Both the position numbers and the translations under genes were made by a program. The notes beneath the pieces are model-generated. The model was not told where the DNA came from. It searched no databases and saw only the letters and a program-made list of their open reading frames with translations. From Eledone cirrhosa (Eukaryota), in the NCBI GenBank assembly GCA_964016885.1, contig OZ024743.1:24056001-24120000 (forward strand): a DNA stretch of 64,000 nt, read 5' to 3'. Shown here piece by piece: positions 7,473 to 62,046 of the stretch. How positions within the stretch are numbered: the stretch's first letter is position 1; each line of letters begins with the position of its first letter.

Positions 7473-9012
7473 AATAATAATAATAATAATGAAATTATTG
7501 TGTAAAGTGCTCAGGTGCACTACAACTCGTCAATATAGTACATAGAATAATACACAAATGCCAGGGAAGTACATGTTTGTATGTGTTAGCTGTAGTGTTG
7601 GCGGATCTCGGGAAGCATGGAGGCCTTAAAGGATGCAGTGTCTCGACAGCTAACAACTGATGCAGGTAGTTTGTTCCATGCTTCAGCAACTCTGAGCGTG
7701 AAAAAATGTTTCCGAAAGTCATGGGAACTGTGCTGTTTTCTTACTTTGTGGGCATGTCCACGTGTGTTAGACACATGGAAATCGAAAAGGCACTCAGGGT
7801 TGTTGTTGGCAACATGGTTAGCAATTTTGTGGGTGTTTACCAAGTCAGTTGCCAGGCGTCGGAGCTTCAATGAATCCATGCCCAGGGAAGCAAGGCGCTC
7901 AGAGTATGGTAGATGCCTGATGGAGGGTATTCGCTTGGTTGCACGTCTCTGAACAGTTTACAGGCGGTCAATGTCCTGAGCAAGATAGGGGTTCCAGACT
8001 GGTGATGCAAATTCTAAGTGTGGTCGCACCATAGCTGTATACAGCCTTAAATAGATATCTGGAGAGCGGCTGACAAAGGTCTTGCTGAGTGATGCTAAGA
8101 CACCCTCGGCCCTCTTGACAATTTTAGAGACGTGCCTCGTCCAACGCAAATCGCTGCTGACCGTAATGCCCAGGTCACGTTCACAGGAAGACTTCTTGAT
8201 ATTAGTGCTGTGGAGGGAGTATGTGGACGCTGGGTTTTTACTCCCAAAATGCATGGTGGTGCACTTGTCCACAGCTAGCTTGAGTTGCCAGTCTGAGATC
8301 CACTGTTGCATTGTGTCCAGGTCAGACTGCAAGCAAGATCTATAGTGTTCAGGATCTGTCCTTTTTATCTCAAGGTACAGCTTGATGTCGTCTGCGTACT
8401 TTAGTACTGTGGCATTCCTTAAGTTGGCATCTATGTCATTAATATATGCCACAAACAAAAGGGGGCCAAGAACAGATCCCTGAGGTACACCAGATGACAT
8501 CTCATATGGTGAGGAATGCTGTCCCAGAACCGTGACTACCTCTCTTCGACTGAGAATGAAGGACTTCAACCAGTTAAAAAGATCATCCTTCACACCCATT
8601 GCAGAGAGTTTTGCCATAAGCCTTTTGTGTGACACAGAATTGAAGGCCTTCGCAAAGTCAAGGTAAACAACATCCACCCATGAGCCGCCATCAGTGATCC
8701 GGGTGATGTCCTCAAGAAACTCTATAAGTTGATCACAGCAGCTGGAGTTGGGGATAAATCCAAATTGCGAGGGCCGGATAAGACTGTGAGAGCTCCAGAA
8801 GTTCCAAAGTGTTTCTCTGACACAGGATTCCATCAGTTTGGCGATGCAACTAGTAAGACTGACTGGACGATAGTTCACAGGTGATGTGCGGTCACCCTTT
8901 TTGAACAGAGGAATGACACTGGCAGTTTTCCACTGTTCTGGAGTAGCACTGTTGTTCAGACAGAATTGGAAGAAGCGTGATAACTGGTGTAGAAGGTTTG
9001 CAATAGCAGCTT
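7473..9012 (-). mobile_element. 5'-truncated CR1/L2-group LINE (RT domain to 3' UTR)
   Basis: ORF 7958-8878 has NYRPVSLTS, YLDFAKAF, GVPQGSVLGPLLF, YADD, VRPHLEF; C-terminal FRKHFFTLRVAEAWNKLP; (ATT)n tail at about 7473-7490. Confidence 0.92.
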
Positions 9013-9482
9013 GGGCACATTTTCATTTACTAGTTCATTGCCCCCATCACCACAAGGTTTATTTTCCAAAGTCTTGACATTCGCTAAACATGGATTATAT
9101 TAAGAGAGAGTTGCACCGGATGATTAGTCTAATTCTCTCGTTCCCGATTTGCTAGTTTAGTGGCAAGGCGACTGGGTTTATATCATGGATGCAATGGGAT
9201 TATCTGGGTGATTTATGTGTACCCCATGCTCTCAGGTATGCATCCCTTCTGTCGTTTGAAACTTGACCATTAATCATGGATTTTCCTCAGCAAGCATATT
9301 TCGCTGTTGATTCTTCTGGGTTCATCCACCCACTGCAGTGTGATCTTACTAAGAAAGCTTAATGGGGGTTAACGATTTAGTTGCCAATGACCTAACCATG
9401 CAACAAATTGTATTGGATTATATGTACCAGAACAGAAGCGCTCCTGAGCGACTTTTATCTCCCCCCATTCTCTCTTATCTCC

Positions 9483-9554
<72 letters not shown>

Positions 9555-9720
9555 ATATTTATATTTATATATGTTTGATATAACTATAAATATGTAGGGT
9601 AGTACTAAGTACTAGCCGGTTACCGGTATGACAAAAGGCTCAATGCAAATTTTCAAGTGTTTTACAGAGCCGAGATATTAAGTGTTAAAACGATCACATT
9701 TTAGTTTAGAACATTTATTA

Positions 9721-9765
9721 GCTGACAATTGTTTCTTCCAGAGGGATGTCTAGAATCATCGGAGC
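9721..9765 (-). ncRNA. type I hammerhead motif, CCGAUGA core variant
   Basis: Minus strand: GCU-CCGAUGA-UUCUAGA(CAUCCC)UCUGGAA-GAAA-CAAUUG-UC-AGC. 7-bp stem II, palindromic helix III ACAAUUGU, GUC site. Confidence 0.6.
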
Positions 9766-10293
9766 ATAAGGAATGTCGAAAACGTGTAACTAGAATCCTA
9801 GTCATTTAGAACATTTAAGGTACATAGTTGTTATTAGTGTCAAAGCATCATGTGGAGATTCAGGAGTTAGACAGATTTTCTGCTTGAAATAACACAATTA
9901 CAGGCAGCACTGGTTGGAAGTGTAATAGGTATAAGTAAAAGCAAAAAGCACAAGCAAAAAAATGACAAGAAAAAAAGACAGGGAAATAAGTTATAAGCAA
10001 AGACAATTGGTGTACAATGTAGGAGTCAATACATGTATGAGGAAAGAGTTATAATGCAGTTGAAACTTATAAAATTAAGTAACCTAACGGTTTACCAACA
10101 GCTTAATAAAGGTTAATACAAACCTTAGAAAAGATAATTTACAAATAAAAAATGCATAAGATAATATACCTACAATAACAACATGGCCAGTAATTCGGAG
10201 GAATTTACATTTAACAAATTAGGCTGCTCAGCCGATAATATGCATAAGGAAAGTATATACTTTCAAACGTTCAATAGACTGACAGGAAGGTAT

Positions 10294-11129: not shown

Positions 11130-11750
<621 letters not shown>

Positions 11751-14853: not shown

Positions 14854-16045
14854 CAGGGTGTGGACGATATTTGTTCGCAATTTTCAATTGCTAATTTTAT
14901 GCCAATTTTTTTTACTTCCGTTGTCACTCTTGTCTTCATAAAAACAGTGACTATATTTCCATTATTTATTTTCAGATTAATTGATTATGAATAATTTTGA
15001 ACCTCCAAATTTGTGGAAGAGAGTTTTTCTTGAGAGTTGTGGAAGAGAGTTCTTGGAATCCGCGCCGGGAGGACAAATAAGGAAATTTCAGACTTTCTCA
15101 GCGTCAGTAGGAGAATGGTGGAAAAGGTCAGAAAGGAATTGGAAGATTCAGGATTCCACTACGAAGCAACATCAGAGAGGAAAACACATGATCGACGATC
15201 TGACACCTTCAGAATGCCCGAGTTCATTGCTGAAGTTCAGCATATCATCAACAATGAACCTAGCAAGTTGATGCGTGCCATTGCAAGGGAGAAAGGCGTG
15301 GATGAAAAGCTCATTAGGCTGGTGGTACATGAAGACATTCGCTACGTTTCATACAAGATGAGGCAAGGACAATTTCTGTCAAAGGCGATGCAAGAAAAGC
15401 GACTGAAGCACGCAAAGAAGCTGATCAACAAGTTGAAACACCCACTGGAGCCAGACATGCTGTGGTTTTTCTCCGACGAGAAAAATTTCTGCCAAGACCA
15501 GAAGATCAACTCCCAGAACAACAGGTGGCTCGCTGTCTCATCCAAAGACGTGCCCAGAGTCATGCAGACAAAGTTTCCAGCAACAACATTGGTCTTAGGT
15601 GTCGTCAGCAGTCAAGGTGACGCCATGCCACTTCACTTCTTCCCTGAGGGCCTCAAGCTGAACACCGATGGCTACATCCACGTTCTGAATGAGGTAGTAA
15701 AGCCCTGGATCGACCAGGTAGCTGCAGGTAGGCCGTATGTGTGGCAGCAAGACTCAGCGCCCTGCAATACCAGCCGAAAGACCCAAGCCTAGCTGTCAGA
15801 GAACTTCGTCAACCACACTTCACCTGACATCCGGCCTCCCAGCTCACCTGACTGCAACCTCCTCGACTTCTTTGTGTGGAGCACAGTGGAACGAGACACC
15901 AACAGATCTAGCTGCAATACGAAAGATGATCTGAAGGCCAGGATCACAAGTGCCTTTAGGGGCCTAAGTCGGGGGACAGTGACGAAGGCCTGTAGCCGGT
16001 TCCGAGGTCGTCATCAAAGCCAATAGCGGGTTTATAGAGTGAGAT
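14854..16045 (+). mobile_element. Tc1/mariner superfamily, DD37D (maT-type) transposase pseudogene
   Basis: CAGGGTG left end after a TA/CA tract; ORF 15037-15792 with WFFSDEKNF and QQDSAP. Reading through TAG 15790 gives PPSSPDCNLLDFFVW, with 37 residues between the 2nd and 3rd D. Right TIR not found. Confidence 0.85.
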
Positions 16046-22344: not shown

Positions 22345-22408
<64 letters not shown>

Positions 22409-22558
22409 CTTATGGTAGCTAAGATGCGTCCATAGGTGGTATGCCAGTTGAGCACTCTATGCTCCTACGGAGCAGAGTATGTTAGAATGGAAAATGAAAA
22501 ATCAGTGATGCATCGGAACTCAATATATTGATTTTGGATCTGCTCTGAAATCAATAGA

Positions 22559-22648
22559 CGTGTCTGAGTAACCTGCGAATCCAGAGTCAGGTCGATCCAC
22601 ACGCAGATCGCTCCTCGAGCTGTTCACCAGGGAAACAATTGTAATATG
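22559..22648 (+). ncRNA. degenerate hammerhead with 61-nt stem II domain (CFAP77 intron 3)
   Basis: CGUGU-CUGAGUA(G8 lost)-A-CCUG...CAGG-GAAA-CAAUUG-UA-AUAUG; homologous to 45430-45526; flanked by inverted repeats 22484-22530 and 22649-22695. Confidence 0.55.
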
Positions 22649-29832: not shown

Positions 29833-32291
29833 TGTCGAAGTAAGTACAAATGTGTGTGTGTGTGGACAGAGGTATGGCAAAATAGATCAGAAGTTTTCTT
29901 CAGAACTATAAGAACCCTGGTTTGATCTCACTTTATGGCACCTTCTTTAACTATGGCCTGAACTTCACTCAAGCATTATGAATACAATTGGTTAGACAGC
30001 AATGCACTGTACCTGCAGTTCAAAGAACCATTCTTGTCAAACACACTGTCTCTCTGGCCCTGCTTAAGGATTAAATCTACAAGCATTTGTGGAATGCTCA
30101 GACACTTGAATCATAATTCAATTAATAGTTATGTTAGTGTTAAGATGTTTAAGTGAGTGTTAAACAGTCATTTAGAAGTAATTATGCAATGGGGGAAAAG
30201 ACAACATTAGCTCAATTGATTAATGTTAAACGAAGATGATGATGATGATGATGAACACTATATAATTATTTTATCAAGTGCATTAGACAATACCAGACAT
30301 TTTTGTTTTATAAGATAAGGGGAATATCTTCACTGAAACATATATGTCATTGTACTTGCCAAAGTAGTAATAGGAGTCAGTAAGTAGATAAACAATATCA
30401 TACACTAGTTGCTGGCAGTGCAGTTTTCGACATTAAGGTAGTACTACATTTGTGATGATAGTTTGCGCAACAGATGGAATGATCGCTCTGTTAGTGTGAT
30501 GCATGTAAGACAATAGGCGGCAAATTGGTAGAGTCATTAGAACATCGGATCGAATGCTTTGTAGTATTTATTTTGGCTATCTGCTCTCTGAGTTTAAATC
30601 CCGCTGAGGTCAACTTTGCCTTTCATCCATTCAAGGGCAATAAAAAAGTACCAGTCAAGTACTGGGATCGATTCTTCCTCTTTATCTCTTTCTAACTTCC
30701 TTTCTCTCACTCTCTGTATTCAGGCCTGGAGAGGAGATGGGCTCTGCCAGGTTTAGAAAATGCCCTAGAAATGCAGTATGTCAATATGGTGTCCCTACGA
30801 CTCCTTGGGAGTTACGGGTTCATACCATACCATACCATACCATACCATACCATACCATACCATACCATACCATGTAAGACAATAATAAAACAAGATAAAG
30901 AATGGACAGAAAAATTTTTGACAAAAAGAGAGATAAATATGTACAAAATTATGACTAGAAATATATAGACTACAGACAGTGTTTGTATGTGTGCTACATG
31001 ATATGCTGGAAATAGGAAAAAAATTGACTTTTGTTGGTGAGATGTGGAGCGAAGAAAAAGCATGATCGACACCTACCTGAGCTCCAGGGTGTAAGGCCAA
31101 ATGAATGGCCTGGTGGTAGGAAGAGTGAGGCAGAAGAGAGATTGTGGAAAGGGTGGAGGAAAATGAGAGAGAGAGAGAGAGAGAAGAGGAAGGGAGCTCA
31201 TGCAAGTATAAACAAAATTAGGTTTACCAAAGTAGATGTGTATTGACCTGGATGTATATAAGTATAGTCATCATTTCATCATTTCATTTTACGTCCGCTT
31301 TTTCCATGCTTGCAAGGGTGGGACGGGAACTGATTTTGGCTTGATTTCTACAGCTGGATGCCATTCCTCACACCAACCTCATTTACAGTGAGTGCTGGGT
31401 GCTTTTTTGCCGTGGCACCTTCACGACCACTTTGCAGTGGAATGATATGGACCCCAGTCCCTATCATCTCATTTCTACAGCTGAGTAAACTGGAGCAATG
31501 TGAAATAAAGTGTCTTGCTCAAGGAAACAACACATCACCCGGTCTGAGAATTGAACTCACAACCTTTCGATTGCAAGGCCAATGCTTTAACCACTAAGCC
31601 ATGTGCCTCCAGTATTAGCAGAAAATGCACATAGTTACAGAAGACAAGACATTAAGGTGGTACTGCATTTGTGATGGGAGCACAACATTGAATGATCGCT
31701 CTGTTGGTGAGATGCATGTATAACAAAACAAAGAATGGTCAGGATATATATATATATATGTATATAAAACGACAACAGAAGGCTGGACTAGAAGATACGC
31801 TGCCATTTCCTTTGTAAGGTTTAATTGAACCATGTCAGCTTTTATCATTTCATCTGAAGTTTTCCTAGTATCATGCACCTCTTTATTTTAAATGGTATAT
31901 ATATATATAAATATCATCATCATCATCATCATTGTTGTTTAATGTCCATTTTCCACAATTGCATGGGTTAGACAGGTTGTCTTGTTATAAAACAAAATCA
32001 GGTCCAGTGAGCCCATCATGCTCATATGGATCTGTATTTTAGCTTAGTTTCTATGGCTGGATTCCCTTCCTAACACCAACCACGTTACATACAGTATGGA
32101 CAGAGTGCTTTTTATCATGGCACCAAAATGACCACATTACAGGGTGAACTGGGTGCTTTTTGTCATGTCACCAACACAACCACCTTACAGTGTGGCATGG
32201 ATACTTTTTGGCATGTCTCTAGCATGATTACCTTAAAGTAGACTGGGCACTTTTTGTTGTGTCAACAGCACAATCATCTTAGAGTGTGTAT

Positions 32292-34572: not shown

Positions 34573-34735
34573 AGGCGCATGGCTTAGTGGTTAGAGCATT
34601 GGGCTTGCAATCGAAAGGTTGCGAGTTCAATTCTCGGACCGGGTGATGTGTTGTTTCCTTGAGCAAGACACTTTATTTCACGTTGCTCCAGTTTATTTAG
34701 CTGTAGAAATGAGATGATAGGACTGGGGTCCCTAT
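34573..34735 (+). mobile_element. tRNA-derived SINE (second family, CORE/V-like body)
   Basis: A box TGGCTTAGTGG, B box GAGTTCAATTC, body ccttgagcaagacactttatttcacgttgctccag. Reverse copies at about 13140-13275, 20828-21062, 31460-31610 and 49620-49757. Confidence 0.75.
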
Positions 34736-40338: not shown

Positions 40339-40526
40339 AAGCTTTCGCCGCATTTTTGACTAAAGAAATTTTAGCCAGGTAGTGGGGATTAGACACCTCT
40401 AAGAAATTGAAAAAGATGTGTATTGACGTACATGTACGTCAATACACATCTTTTTCAATTTCTTAGAGGTGTCTAATCCCCACTACCTGGCTAAAATTTC
40501 TTTAGTCAAGAATACAGCGAAAGCTT
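40339..40526. repeat. 188-bp spacerless palindrome next to (TA)n
   Basis: Centre gtaca|tgtac at 40432/40433; 94-bp arms with three mismatches near the outer end. Confidence 0.88.
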
Positions 40527-40574
40527 CTATTTTTTATTTCAAATTCGCTCGCTGTTTCAAAACATACATACTTG

Positions 40575-40699
<125 letters not shown>

Positions 40700-41610
40700 C
40701 GAGCTGTCAGAAAAGTTCCAGGACTGATGTCACAAAAGATTTATTTCAAACCCAAACTTCACACTAAGAGTTTTCTCCTTCAAAGTAATCCCCCTGGAGT
40801 ATGTAACTATAATCTTAGCTCTCTGCACCGATCAAACTTTTTCCTTCATAATTTTATATACATGTCCTCTGTTTCAGGTCGTCAAGCAATGAGAACAGAG
40901 CAACGAACAAACTTGAAGTTTCTGGTACGGTTGGGGAAAACTCCGTCAGAAGCACTGGGATTGCTGCAGCAGGTGTATGGAGATGAGACGATGTCACGCT
41001 CACGTGTTTTTGAGTGGTGCAAGAGGTTTAAAGAAGGACGCGAGGACGTGGAAGATGACCCCAGGAGCGGAAGGCCCTCAACAACCAGGACTGAGGTCAA
41101 CGTTGAGCGCGTCAGGCAGATGGTGCGTAGCGATCATCGGCTGACTGTTCGACTGATGGCAAATGAGCTGGGCATGAATCGGGAAAGCGTCTGGAAGATT
41201 CTCACTGAAGATTTGGACATGCGGAATGTCTGCGCGAAGATGGTGCCAAAACTGCTGAACGATGACCAGAAGGGTCGACGCATGCAAGTGTACCAGGACA
41301 TCCTTGAGCGTCTTGAAAACGAACCAGACTTGCTAGGGACAGTCATCACCAGTGATGTCATGGTTCTTCGAGTACGATCCGGAGGGGACCCGTTTTGAAG
41401 ACGTGGACGACATCAAAAAGGCGTGACGACGGAACTGCGGAGGATCACGGAAGAATCCTTCCAGGAGTGCATGCAAGCGTGGCAGAAAAGGATGGAAAAG
41501 TGCATTAGACTCCAGGGGGATTACTTTGAAGAAGAAAACTCTTATTGTAAAGTTAGGGTTTGAAATAAATCTTTTGTGACATCAGTCCTGGAACTTTTCT
41601 GATACACCTC

Positions 41611-44529: not shown

Positions 44530-45275
44530 ATTTAATATGGGTATAGCTTCTACAGGGCTAGAATTGTTTCATTCGAAGGAAATCGCTAAACACTCATTGT
44601 AGTTAACTAGATTGTAGACCAATATGAATAACTGACGCAAATCCTCATATCCCTTATCTCCTCGAGAAAGTATCCATGTACCTTCCTATTTCTAAGATCC
44701 GAATTCAAACACAACCTATCCAGTGATTTATTAACAAATGGAATCCTGAAATATTTCACTTTTACCCTTCTATCCTTATCCTTTGCATCCTCAAGTAATC
44801 TATTGTAGAAACCATCTATCAGAAAACTAACCTCGGATAGCCTTTCTTCACACCTCCTCATCAAATCCTTAAGCTTGCACTTAGAACATACTCTACGCAA
44901 CATAAAACATTGGTAAAAATCCCCGGACCTATAGAGTTCGACCAGTTTCTTCCACTCATTACCCGTATCACATTTATCTCTCCTAATTTTTCTTAACTTC
45001 CTCCTACCGTGGATATGTTTCCTTCTTAGCTCAGGCAGAGAAAGATAGACGCGGCTACACTTATTTTCCTTCTTAGATATTATACCAGAGACCGTAACTC
45101 TATCATTCAACCCTAGTGGGTTCACACTGCACATAGCCCCCATTCAGTAATTCTCCCTAGCCAGTAATTCCTGTTTAGCTATAGTTCCTAACACCTGAAC
45201 CTGGTCAATGATCTTGATCTTACCACAACCAAAACCCTCCCTATCTCGCCTGAAGTGTTCGTATATGTATAAAGA
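44530..45275 (-). mobile_element. Naiad-type Penelope-like element fragment (GIY-YIG end followed by pre-RT linker)
   Basis: YEHF...KIIDQV...LLARENY*MGAMCSVNPLGLNDR is the end of a GIY-YIG domain (TGA at the conserved W), followed in frame by FRIPFVNKSLD...VSYSYWSTI, consistent with an N-terminal endonuclease. Confidence 0.6.
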
Positions 45276-45429
45276 TTTGTCCGAATAAAACACTGTCTAT
45301 GTCCACTGAGTCACCGCTGTAATGACTGAGACGTCTGTCCGACGTACCCGCAAACTTCACTCAGCTCACTGAATACCGTATATAAGATATAGGGTACAAA
45401 GAATCAGTGTTGCATCATATACATATTTA

Positions 45430-45526
45430 AACACATATTACTTATGTTTCACTACCGATCAGCTCGAGGAACAATCGATTATGTTCGTTCTTGAATCTGG
45501 ACTCGAAAGCTCTTCAGATATGTGTT
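45430..45526 (-). ncRNA. type I hammerhead with 60-nt branched stem II domain
   Basis: Minus strand: AACACAUAU-CUGAAGA-GCU-UUCGAG...CUCGAG-CUGAUCGGU-AGU-GAAA-C(AUAA)G-UA-AUAUGUGUU. 9-bp stem I, intact core, GUA site. Confidence 0.72.
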
Positions 45527-46107
45527 CTCACATGTAGACTCACGTCGAAACACACACACACACACGCACACACGCACACACACATATATATATATTTATA
45601 CACACACACACGTATATATATACAAATGTATATATGTACACAGAAACATATTATTATCTAATTATCTAACACTTAAGACATTTAGGCAAGTGAAAACACA
45701 TTAAAGGCTCCAGTCTTCTTCTGGATACCATGATACTCTTGTCGGCAATCATTCATATAAATAATCTAGTTAAAGGTTTATCTACCATCTCTATACGATC
45801 TGTATCTCCCTGAACCTGTATATGAGACGTGTGACCACAGTCAGCGTGCAGCGCCAAGCTTTGTTTGTATTTTGTAATATATAAAGAAAATAAAGACAGA
45901 TTTGTTAACCATTCATGCGTGTTTTTACACACTGGAAACTATTTCATTTTATTTACATATTTATTTATTTGTGTTTGATATTTTTGAATAACAATATCAA
46001 TAATAATTAAAATTCTTTTTCATATTATTTTCACTCGAGGCTAATTATGGCTTTAATTCTTTCGGTTTCGATAAAATATCAGTTAAATACTAGAGTCGAT
46101 ATTAATC

Positions 46108-58292: not shown

Positions 58293-59181
58293 GTTTCTTT
58301 TATTTGCCACTAGGGCATCAAAAGTGGGACAAGTACAAAGGGGGGAGTTTACACAAAAAGGCGTCCTCAATAAGGAGGAGGCAATAACAAAATATAAAAA
58401 TAAAATAAGATATAACAAAAAATAAAATTTATAACAAAATCCTCAATAGAGAGGAGGCGCCTTGGGGGGTCGCACACACCCCCGAAAAAAGTGTGCAACC
58501 CTTCTCCTCAGGAGCACAGAGAAGGGGTGCTCCCTTGGTCTTTCATCTTCCTCACCTATAGTCTGATGTAGAGTGAAGGCCCATTCACACGGGCCATTCT
58601 CGCCACTTTCACCCATCTTTCATAGAAACGGCTGGGGTGCAGCACCTCTCTCGCCATCCTGATCCTTCTTCCGAAATGATATCGGAAGAAACGGACCAGT
58701 TGTTGGCCAGAGAGAAAGGTGCCTGACCTCAGTCCTTTCAGACGCGTCCACCATACAACCTCTTTCGCCATGGCTATTACGCACAGAAACACCGCCTCTG
58801 CTTCATCTTTGAAGGGGGGAGGCGGCTTGATCATTACAATAGACTCGGTGGTCAACCGGATCGGTCCCACCCTTGACAGCAGTTGTTCGACATAGCCCCA
58901 CAGATCGGCTACGCCCGAGCAGTGTACCAATGCGTGTACAACGGTTTCCTCGTCGCACACGCATCTGGGACAGATCTTTTTGGCGGGGTCCCTACCCGGG
59001 CGCCCGTGTCTGTAGAGCCTTTCTCGAACGGGTAAAGCCCCTCGGTAGCACTGCCAGGCCAGGGACTTCTGGAAGTTGTCCATAGGTCCCGGGCTGAATG
59101 TCCTACCGAACAGGCTGGCCAGTTCGTCCTCCTCCATGTCTAGGGCTTCTCCGAGGGCGTCGTCGCACCTACTGCGTACCA
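58293..59181 (-). mobile_element. Tx1/L1-clade LINE 3' fragment (zinc knuckle, 3' UTR)
   Basis: LAWQCYRGALPV, CPRC...ETVVHALVHC, AKEVVW; AATAAA near the 3' end; (GATA)n tracts at both junctions. Confidence 0.82.
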
Positions 59182-59182
59182 G

Positions 59183-59245
<63 letters not shown>

Positions 59246-59790
59246 AGCAACAAGAAGTTGTATAACATTAATACAACATTCTGGTGCAAGCGGAGAAACA
59301 GGCAAAAACAACATACAAAATGAAAATGGGTGATGGTTAAATACAAAAGAAAGACGCGGGAGAGAAAATAAAAATGGGATGGTGAGTAGGAATGGACGCT
59401 TAAAGTATTAGAGGACAGAAGATGTGACATACACAGCGGCAAATATTTAGAAATATATGATATATCACGGCCGTGTTTTGGAGGAGTTTTTAATATGTTT
59501 GAAATAAGAAGACAAAAACAACCAACCAACCAAACAAACAAACATAACAGTTAACAGAGACTTAATGCAATATATATTTAGTTTGATGTTTCATGTAAAG
59601 GCGAACCTATACTTCATCTACACATAATAAAGACAAATTCCACCCCAGCAATGGAAACTATAAAAATAAATAAATGAAACAAAATAGCAACAAAGTCTTT
59701 GAGATTTAATGCACACATGATTCGAAGCAGCAATCAACTGACTATTAACAAGTCGCACTACACAACTAGTAAACGCCTTGTTGCATGTCC

Positions 59791-59865
<75 letters not shown>

Positions 59866-60614
59866 GTGGTAAAGGCGGAGCGTTTAGGTTGGTAGCCGCC
59901 TACGGCCCTTTCGGGTCAATGCGGCCGGACTTCTTCCATCGTCTGGAGACTTTTCTAGGGACGTCCCGCTCCTTGCTATTAGTGGGGGACTGGAATGGTA
60001 TCCTAGATGCACGCTGGGACTACGTAGGGGCCTGCCCCGATAGAGAGGGGTGTAATAGCCTCAAAGGGTTAATCGGTCGATTTGACCTGGCCGATAGATA
60101 TCGACTAGATTTTCCGACTGCGCCAACCTGGACTTGGGCAAATCGTAGCGGATCATCTAGGTCGTACCTAGATAGGTTCTTAGTTAGAATTAAGGATAAG
60201 GACTTTTTAAGTTGTCCAAAAATGCGCATGGTTGGCTATTCAGACCACAAATTAGTGACCTGCATGGTCAACCTTGACAGAACTCATAGACAGGGCCCCG
60301 GTTACTGGAAGCTCAACTTGTCCTTGCCGGCAAGTAGAGCCTACAGGAATCGGATTAGTACGTTAGTTAAGGAACGGTTGACTGGAGCGATCGTCAACAG
60401 CAGGTGGTGGGTATCTCTAAAGAGAGAGATTAGAGTAGTCTCGATAGAATTTAGTAAGGTTCTAGCTGCGGATAGGAATAGGAAGGAAAGGGAGCTAATA
60501 GATAGAGTAGAAGAGGCAATTAGAAGCGGCGACGTGGCCAGAGTGCTAGCGTCGAGAACGGCTTTGAGCCAGTTTTTCGACGCGAAGCACGAAGGCTGCG
60601 TTGTCCGAAGTAAA
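59866..60614 (+). mobile_element. Tx1/L1-clade LINE APE endonuclease fragment
   Basis: LVAAYGP, LVGDWN, WTW, SYLDRFLV, SDHKLV, GPGYWKLN; begins directly after (TATC)n. Confidence 0.85.
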
Positions 60615-60619
60615 ATGGT

Positions 60620-61560
60620 GGAAGTGGCCTACTTCCCACTCCAAGTAGCAAACTTAAAATTCACCCTAGAATAGGAATGAGCAATGGGATGACAAATAAC
60701 AAATGCCCAGGTAATAATATCCCTACCAACTCCACTAGAACCCCTAGAAGGAATAAGCCTAGAAATATCACCTGGCTTAACCCCCCATTCTCATCTAACT
60801 TAGCCACTAATATCTCTAAACGCTTCTTCTCTATCCTATCTAAATACCTCCCCCCCCCAACCATAGATATTACAAACTCTTTAATAAAAACAACATTAAA
60901 ATCTCATTCTCCACAACACCTAACCTAGCTAGCCACATCACATTCAGTAACCAGCATAAACTAAGACAGTATAATTCCCACACCGCGGTACTACCACCCC
61001 CATCAAATACACCACGCCACTACACCAACACTTACTCTAGTAGCACACCTCCCCCATCTAATCCTTCTAGCACGCACCAACCGCATAGTTTAAACAACCC
61101 TACACTCACTAACGGCAGAAATAACTGCAACTGCCGTTACCCTAATGCATGCCCACTAAATGGACAATGCCTGACACCCAATATAATTTATAGGTGCACA
61201 GTTAAAATAGCTTCGCATACCAGCTCCTATATTGGCTCTACCTCTAACCCTTTTAAGGTACGCTATAACGCGCACTCTTTTTCCTTCCGAGACCCTAACA
61301 ATAGATGTTCGACATCTCTAGCTAGGCTCATTAAAAACCTTAAATTAACCAACATTGAACACTCACTAACATGGGATATCTTGGCTGGGGCCCAACCGTT
61401 CAATGGACGAAAAACTCTTGTGACCTCTGTCTTACCGAAGCATATTACATAACTCTATCACGACCTCTACCGATTAACGATAGAAGGGAGGTAACTATTA
61501 GCTGTCAACATCGAAGGGCTAATTCCTTCGCCAACAGAATATTTGACCCAACATAGTCAT
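60620..61560 (+). mobile_element. Penelope-like element fragment with C-terminal GIY-YIG endonuclease
   Basis: ITWLNPPFS, CNCR...CPLNGQC, IIYRC...SYIGST..FKVRY..H, CDLCLTE, SCQHR; frameshifts near 60850 and 61400. Confidence 0.85.
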
Positions 61561-61914: not shown

Positions 61915-62046
61915 TCCTTTTGAAGTTCCGATGAGCTGCTCTAATTGTACCTAAGTTAATTATCTTCAACTGAACCAGATCGGTAATGATCTATACTCAT
62001 TTGATCCAGAAACATTATATGGAGTAGCGAAACAATTGTAAACGGA
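61915..62046 (+). ncRNA. type I hammerhead, CCGAUGA core, 94-nt stem II domain
   Basis: UCC-(bulge)-GUU-CCGAUGA-GCUGCUCUA...UGGAGUAGC-GAAA-CAAUUG-UA-AAC-GGA; 9-bp stem II base starting G-C; palindromic helix III; downstream of the PLE ORF. Confidence 0.65.

Follow-up and report, generated by a model that had tools for sequence, protein, structure and literature searches.

A hammerhead ribozyme of Penelope-like elements in Eledone cirrhosa with a long stem II hairpin and a near-invariant internal loop

In metazoan Penelope-like elements (PLEs), hammerhead ribozymes work as dimers and with low activity (PMC4209133; PMC6765202). That of the Poseidon element of Anolis cleaved only when the element's own protein was present, and the template was the uncut RNA (PMC11167929). 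The role of the ribozyme in PLEs is puzzling, since these hammerheads are poor cutters and inserted copies come from uncut RNA. Widely spaced core halves have been described before: the longest loop 2 entries in file S2 of PMC8557442 are 29–35 nt, in PLE-X elements of spike-moss, with no conserved internal motif given there, and the same source lists eight Naiad elements with core halves 35–50 nt apart. Therefore, long spacing alone is not new. Here we describe a hammerhead found in a 64-kb stretch of the genome of Eledone cirrhosa (contig OZ024743.1, positions 24,056,001 to 24,120,000; hereafter the window), in which stem II is extended by an irregular hairpin holding an internal loop of nearly fixed sequence and position. 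Judged from sequence, it appears to be a variant form of the PLE hammerhead, marked by an unexplained, invariant loop.

A strict type I descriptor applied to both strands of the window gave a sole match, 45527-45429, confirming the core, the GUA site and the 60-nt insert which a first-pass annotation had reported and placing them on the minus strand (Table 1). The type I core (CUGANGA and GAAA boxes, A15.1-U16.1, H17) is present in this copy and intact in 18/30 copies of its family (family A) and 21/30 copies of family B. Stem I, given previously as 9 bp, is indeed present, but its length is 10 contiguous pairs with G-U included. The flagged copy is itself decayed: its conserved loop reads GAUUCAAG instead of GAGUCAGG, with two changes in the loop region, and its loop III is the non-palindromic AUAA (GAAAC-AUAA-GUA). 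It scores 93.6 bits on a purpose-built covariance model of whose seed it was part. The homologue at 22559 is a member of the sister family B; its insert is 61 nt long, as annotated, continues into GAAAC-AAUU-GUA and shares with the flagged copy both sequence blocks listed for the pair. Its core is decayed rather than intact, reading CUGAGUA, a G8-to-U change not shared by its family, where nearly all of 29 aligned relatives have CUGAGGA. In the window only the 3' end of the element is left in copies of either family. The expectation that standard searches would overlook the motif was borne out for Rfam: neither the 142 matches obtained for the whole window at E≤1 nor a search with one well-preserved family copy at E≤10 included a hammerhead or any other relevant family.

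DNA searches of the 3.0-Gb genome with families A and B returned 1,787 and 2,469 first-look candidates, respectively, 40 of which were scored per family. Copies were also counted with exact patterns, which give lower bounds and were each run against a reversed-pattern control. The pattern GAGTCAGG..YGAGCYR..GAAAC had at least 4,910 exact matches genome-wide, from many subfamilies, and none in the control; CTGAGGA..GAGTCAG..YGAGC had 2,606 exact matches against 0, and the CTGATGA version of the same loop pattern 359 against 1. Among fetched loci, the loop was present in 123 of 157 core matches with inserts of 50–72 nt, forming 39 clusters. From these clusters 19 subfamily representatives were chosen, leaving out singletons that resembled decayed or deleted copies, and were aligned with the 2 window copies by MAFFT, on sequence only and with structure unused (alignment A1). 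The repeat is also present in three contig sets derived from sequencing runs.

The inserts, 58–63 nt in length, folded singly as an unbranched, irregular hairpin in 20/21 cases, and the branched domain described in the first-pass annotation was rejected. The 60-nt extension comprises a 9-position helix, a 2-nt bulge, a CAG/CUG helix, an internal loop, an AGG/CCU helix and a terminal hairpin. The stability of the inserts is modest (mean z only −1.1; below −1 in 11/21). On A1 the proposed structure pairs 76.6% of cells, with two-sided change in 22/27 pairs; 0/500 shuffles scored as high on all five measures, and slid registers paired 28–41%. Pairing reaches 78% in the outer 12 pairs, 11 of which show two-sided changes. 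In three rows UGG/CCA replaces the CAG/CUG helix, and at its far side the loop is closed by A-U, G-C or U-A. The innermost helix was poorly aligned by MAFFT and is unsupported at those columns. What looked like different closing helices in the two window copies is a single 9-position helix that keeps its register and differs by compensatory changes. In the same alignment stem I is paired in 85.7% of cells (two-sided change in 5/5 pairs), stem II in 78.2% and stem III in 97.6%. The first stem II position is paired in 12/21 rows (G-C in 4) and the second is C-G in 16 and A-U in 3; with inserts of this length, the helix II of about 6–8 bp closed by G10.1-C11.1 that typifies the minimal PLE hammerhead is lacking. 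Among copies with a readable stem III, this stem is perfectly palindromic in 21/25 of family A and 28/29 of family B, and it shows two-sided changes across subfamilies; by analogy with the hammerheads described in PMC4209133, such a palindromic, covarying stem III is the signature of dimeric PLE ribozymes.

Because kin share changes, tree-aware tests were added, for which 154 instances were reduced to 64 and, after three were dropped as non-homologous, to 61 sequences under 88% identity. Compensatory events counted on the tree amounted to 10.0 in 15 insert pairs, compared with 2.5 ± 1.6 when partners were permuted (2 of 20,000 permutations), in a test of low power in which stem I itself yields just 1.0 event. 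An alternative register (38-66/39-65/40-64) is disfavoured, since 38-66 is unpaired in 9/21 rows and 38-65 in 3/21. The pseudoknot between the second CAG and CUG, suggested by the first-pass annotation, was rejected: it has no two-sided change in its 3 pairs and competes with the covarying CAG/CUG helix. A splice-site or protein-coding origin of the conserved CAG-G was dismissed on inspection because subfamilies exist that have no pyrimidine tract or no GU, and because the reading frame is not preserved. With helices that covary between subfamilies, the stem II extension is, on the evidence of these alignments, a real, selected RNA structure, as had been claimed.

RNAalifold run on A1 failed to recover the hairpin and gave instead one 4-bp helix between core and insert (UCUG/CAGA). 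This sole consensus helix is what one would expect if the insert were a built-in off switch, in which UCAGG (or CAGA) pairs with the catalytic UCUGA until the RNA is refolded. UCUGA and UCAGG are paired in 94% of cells, with one-sided changes that retain G-U, and an anti-core helix exceeds a probability of 0.5 in 6/21 transcripts truncated within the insert. However, covariation is neither possible nor seen in this pairing, and 450/500 shuffles were as good. In full-length RNA the UCAGG helix stays at ≤0.06 in all 21 rows and the CAGA helix passes 0.5 in 2/21, the pairing is broken in one subfamily (row L258), and the invariant GAGC would be left unexplained. We consider an off switch very improbable.

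The most constrained part of the hairpin is the internal loop, 5'-AGUC-3'/5'-YGAG-3', enclosed by two covarying 3-bp helices. Counting the loop with its closing G-C pair in the 19 representatives, four columns are identical in 19/19 (G33, A34, G35, A68), four in 18/19 (U36, C37, G69, C70) and one in 16/19 (G67), even though the inserts as a whole average 53% identity with a minimum of 28%. By this comparison the loop appears about as invariant as the catalytic core. Its position is equally constant, 11 nt before GAAAC in 19/19 representatives and 12–14 nt past the CUGANGA box. Within family A the copies decay alike in loop, core and flank (4–6%), and within family B the loop departs less (1.1%) than other parts (3–6%); with within-family decay so similar, selection shows mainly between source elements. 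A kink-turn consists of a 3-nt bulge followed by tandem sheared G-A pairs; inspection of A1 revealed no 3-nt bulge beside GA/GA in either orientation, and this candidate was rejected.

The loop also looks like loop A of the hairpin ribozyme (A-GUC opposite NGAR), where it would dock a flipped-out G on a partner and provide a second cleavage/ligation site. AGUC/YGAG fits G+1, G8 and A9, positions that are invariant or almost so across 941 hairpin ribozymes, and the A10G variant occurs naturally and is active (PMC8216279). Nevertheless, the closing pair is inverted, with C at position 11 in 18/19 representatives where the cited passages name just G or A; loop B with helices 3 and 4 is impossible, with 3 nt between GAAACA and GUA; and the best candidate for helix 3 has ≤3 bp in 14/19. 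With so many loops known, agreement with one of them at five or six bases may plausibly be coincidental, and we find this explanation hardly credible.

Both families are, as their sequences indicate, 3' ends of Hydra-clade PLEs. In family B, a GIY-YIG endonuclease lies about 1.4 kb upstream on the same strand (locus L335), the family is continuous with reverse transcriptase (RT) and endonuclease in L336, and the tail runs straight into the start of an open reading frame (ORF) in L081 and L082; in family A, walking upstream reached the same endonuclease type at about 0.9–1.0 kb in two independent loci (L340, L345). RMRW(R) and DKTGN occur in L081 and L082, which represent family B and one other subfamily and have R in place of K at the third position. 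L335 has a CxCx5C linker, the third Cys of which is substituted by different residues in the decayed family A copies L340 and L345; CCHH is absent from the endonuclease, with just one Cys between the GIY and YIG positions. RW(R)/RWK, DKT, the CxCx5C linker and the absence of CCHH are diagnostic Hydra-clade features (PMC8557442). The inverted partner that accompanies many copies of both families, the pseudo-long terminal repeat (pseudo-LTR) and the insertion into (TA)n are likewise traits of this clade. The nearest long protein found, with 47% identity to the related RT in L082, was from Argonauta hians (3 hits, 2,269 candidates), and the elements resemble published Octopus elements; among viral contigs no locus with a Hydra protein was found. 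A Naiad element as the parent was rejected: a Naiad-like frame stands beside just 1 of 123 instances, the one in the window, and the motif is absent from the Naiad consensus file of PMC8557442. As this frame lies on both sides of the flagged copy and next to no other instance, the flagged copy is a nested insertion within it.

Copies end about 55 nt past the cleavage site. This first 3' end runs into a microsatellite in 23/30 A and 18/30 B copies, and a further tail is present in 6 and 11, respectively. The optional tail, about 75 nt between the two 3' ends and located in the window at 22404-22480 on the minus strand, contains GAGUGCUC and a hairpin common to three subfamilies (families A and B and L082:6050-6075), and is a candidate RT initiation element. 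Such an arrangement bears on a further explanation, that the loop is a template-recognition site for RT which sits in stem II by chance and has no effect on cleavage. The loop, located some 80 nt upstream of the first 3' end, is retained even in the shortest insertions, and the 4,910 exact matches speak of efficient mobilisation. Conversely, the tail offers a separate conserved sequence, and a free-standing site would need no fixed spacing to the core. Moreover, Poseidon RT in vitro initiates downstream of the ribozyme, and a Poseidon template without the first 20 nt of the ORF, which begins where stem II begins, was still used for insertion (PMC11167929); by analogy, this weakens the case for recognition of this region by RT. 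We rate this explanation as quite unlikely.

The ribozyme motif lies about 150–250 nt upstream of Hydra ORF starts, once in L081 and twice in L082. Its invariant bases might act in DNA, for instance in a pseudo-LTR promoter of the downstream tandem ORF, with the hairpin merely tolerated. Apart from this location in L081 and L082, PLE pseudo-LTRs are known to carry a promoter (PMC6765202). The loop halves, however, face each other across covarying helices in a fixed RNA geometry, neither of which a DNA site needs. GAGTCA resembles an AP-1 site, which would count in favour of DNA-level function; overall we hold such a function to be very unlikely.

Our tentative preference, in which our confidence stays somewhat short of even, is that this is a PLE hammerhead with an extended stem II whose AGUC/YGAG loop binds a protein, probably the element's own RT-endonuclease, and thereby gates dimer-dependent self-cleavage. 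The RNA alone would be mostly folded away from the active form. A protein sitting on stem II, about one helical turn from the core, could keep the stem in register and promote the active dimer, so that binding at the invariant, purine-rich loop would couple formation of the ribonucleoprotein to cleavage. The cut would then deprive a unit transcript of its 3' end or break up tandem transcripts, since the cleavage site lies just upstream of a conserved A(A/U)UAAA, which we infer to be a polyadenylation signal. Inserted copies, by contrast, contain sequence from either side of the site and so would derive from uncut RNA. In modelling, the active dimer lies 6–44 kcal/mol above the free minimum (19 rows), and 6–8 kcal/mol above it in the five best, as computed on decayed copies with a model without tertiary terms; in the full-length monomer, stem II helices often fall below 0.5 probability. 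The predicted energy gap fits a need for help.

Several points weigh against a protein-gated ribozyme. The precedent for protein-assisted cleavage is the Poseidon element, which has an ordinary stem II (PMC11167929). Covariation among family copies, proposed as a check in the first-pass annotation, is supported by the tree-counted excess and fails to appear in an all-pairs, tree-aware test in the manner of R-scape on the same 61 sequences, in which no pair reached E<0.05 and the best, a helix pair, had E 4.1. The invariance of the loop is inflated because many representatives were retrieved with loop-containing patterns; a core-only pattern did find both loop halves (≤1 mismatch) in 27/30 fetched loci, compared with 0.5 expected from shuffles, but these 30 were drawn from 294 long-insert matches (control 3) and belong to few related subfamilies. 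Core-only searches also returned 137 matches with inserts of 8–24 nt (control 2) and, for the CTGATGA core only, 106 with inserts of 25–55 nt (control 3). Hammerheads with the same stem III thus exist with a short or unrelated stem II, and in general this ribozyme type can do without the loop, which seems to mark one very successful lineage. Finally, the invariant loop is equally compatible with an RNA tertiary contact.

With such a contact, the loop would dock as a module, either onto the extended stem I or onto the dimer partner, and replace the usual loop 1-loop 2 contact without any need for protein. The fixed distance of the loop from the core would suit it, and natural hammerheads need contacts between stems I and II for speed (PMC3088659). 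A possible partner is the A-rich strand that follows stem I in 22/30 long-insert copies, in which A(A/U)UAAA occurs within 25 nt past the cleavage site. Yet the same signal follows the cut in 15/30 fetched copies with 25–55 nt inserts, of which just 5 have the loop (upstream of the site it occurs in 0 long-insert and 1 of these copies), and similar A-rich tails follow short-stem Hydra hammerheads (PMC8557442 supplement). The A-rich strand is therefore not a specific loop partner; no canonical loop 2 is found near the core, and no other conserved partner strand was seen in A1. We judge a tertiary-contact module unlikely, and continue to prefer protein binding at the loop.

If the loop does gate cleavage, these elements would contain a natural protein-switched hammerhead, an architecture that engineers make by hand. 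The possibility that the stem II module is aptamer-like, making a natural aptazyme through which the element's protein or a host factor would decide between a cut transcript and a whole template, we regard as somewhat unlikely. A loop as constrained as the core and at a fixed distance from it offers a precise, nine-base handle on binding, cleavage and reverse transcription. Since at least 4,910 motifs in one genome escape Rfam, ribozymes in animals are undercounted, and the "half-core" motifs that were passed over in other PLEs merit a search with limits that allow a long stem II.

Other hammerheads in this genome differ in stem II. A third Hydra-type family, with 2,421 first-look candidates, is found in the window at 61928-62040 on the plus strand with an endonuclease frame at 60844-61452; it has an unrelated 94-nt stem II insert and a fixed core variant, CCGAUGA, in 19/20 aligned copies (CCGACGA in one). 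A short-stem hammerhead at 9705-9769 on the minus strand also has CCGAUGA, with GAAACAAUUGUC and then AAUAAA. Loci L245-L274 and others represent several more families with unrelated stem II extensions of 40–50 nt and the same palindromic stem III. Most families have A(A/U)UAAA 6–25 nt past the cut, then CA and a U-rich stretch, resembling a polyadenylation signal. Stem II in this genome thus varies in length between about 10 and about 95 nt and has several unrelated extensions, which makes stepwise lengthening as likely as grafting; the description of the insert as a grafted module was not borne out. In a tandem array (G000:C8:17161983-17164234), CTGATGA and GAAACATATGTA recur in what may be a retrozyme-like repeat. 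Metagenome (54 of 64 parts) and viral loci, with almost no animal DNA, gave 122 pattern matches, none with CUGANGA within 30 nt upstream, and these are taken as chance.

Table 1. Positions of the ribozyme, its parts and associated PLE sequences in the window
Feature	Position	Strand	Remarks
Type I hammerhead ribozyme motif, family A copy	45429..45527	minus	predicted cleavage after A at 45439
CUGAAGA box	45517-45511	minus	
Stem II extension, 60 nt	45451..45510	minus	between CUGAAGA and GAAAC
GAAAC	45450-45446	minus	
GUA cleavage triplet	45441-45439	minus	
Conserved loop, 5' half	45493..45497	minus	GAGUC in family, GAUUC in this copy
Conserved loop, 3' half (GAGC)	45462..45465	minus	11 nt ahead of GAAAC
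GAAAC-loop-GUA with 2-bp stem III	45439..45450	minus	family palindrome CAUAUG, lost here
Pseudo-LTR, 5'-truncated 3' end of family A Hydra-clade PLE	45385..45555	minus	inside older Naiad fragment
Homologous hammerhead, family B copy	22559..22648	plus	61-nt extension 22571-22631; core at 22564-22570
Inverted 3' end and tail of same family B element	22404..22530	minus	inverted partner, as is usual for PLE insertions
Decayed Naiad PLE fragment (N-terminal endonuclease)	44607-45390 + 45640-45760	minus	split by microsatellite and family A insertion

Elsewhere in the window, two weak tRNA-like Rfam matches just over the gathering score (31544-31601, minus; 34580-34637, plus) are possibly heads of tRNA-derived short interspersed elements, and near-perfect long inverted repeats at 11374-11455 and 40380-40485 are probably small non-autonomous DNA transposons. 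Fragments of long interspersed element RT/endonuclease and of mariner-like transposase, the mariner label being assigned by eye, occur at 7586-9022 (minus), 15034-15792 (plus), 40427-41398 (minus) and 58556-60674 (minus).

A literature search over titles, starts of abstracts and passages, with Lunse et al. 2017, the PMC4209133 supplements and Repbase outside its scope, found no PLE hammerhead with a conserved long stem II. In engineered hammerhead aptazymes, which are artificial, a ligand-binding module is built into stem II, with its distance from the core defined. The Eledone motif resembles them in the placement of its module in stem II, whereas its ligand and gating are putative. With loop A of the hairpin ribozyme (PMC8216279; PMC3672286) the likeness is a 4x4 loop with A-G-U-C opposite N-G-A-R; here, in contrast, the closing pair is inverted, and loop B and helices 3 and 4 are absent. 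With the Poseidon element of Anolis carolinensis the Eledone elements share a PLE hammerhead with a tail behind it that separates two 3' ends, but the protein-dependent cleavage observed there is only proposed here. Poseidon belongs to another clade, its ORF starts in stem II and no extension is described for it (PMC11167929), whereas the ribozyme described here lies about 0.9–1.4 kb past the endonuclease and 100–200 nt ahead of the next ORF. The Hydra-clade hammerheads of PMC8557442 (file S2) have in common with ours the protein clade, the (TA)n insertion, the palindromic stem III, a first stem II position that is often unpaired and a tail that is A-rich and then U-rich; in the motifs listed there, including Hydra-1_oBim, the stems are 3–7 bp with loops of 3–10 nt. 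The minimal type I hammerheads of PLEs likewise agree in type, in their pseudo-LTR position, in a very short palindromic stem III that implies dimers, and in their occurrence as many dispersed single copies and inverted pairs; their helix II, however, is described as 6–8 bp (PMC4209133), as opposed to the irregular hairpin of 58–63 nt with its invariant loop in Eledone.
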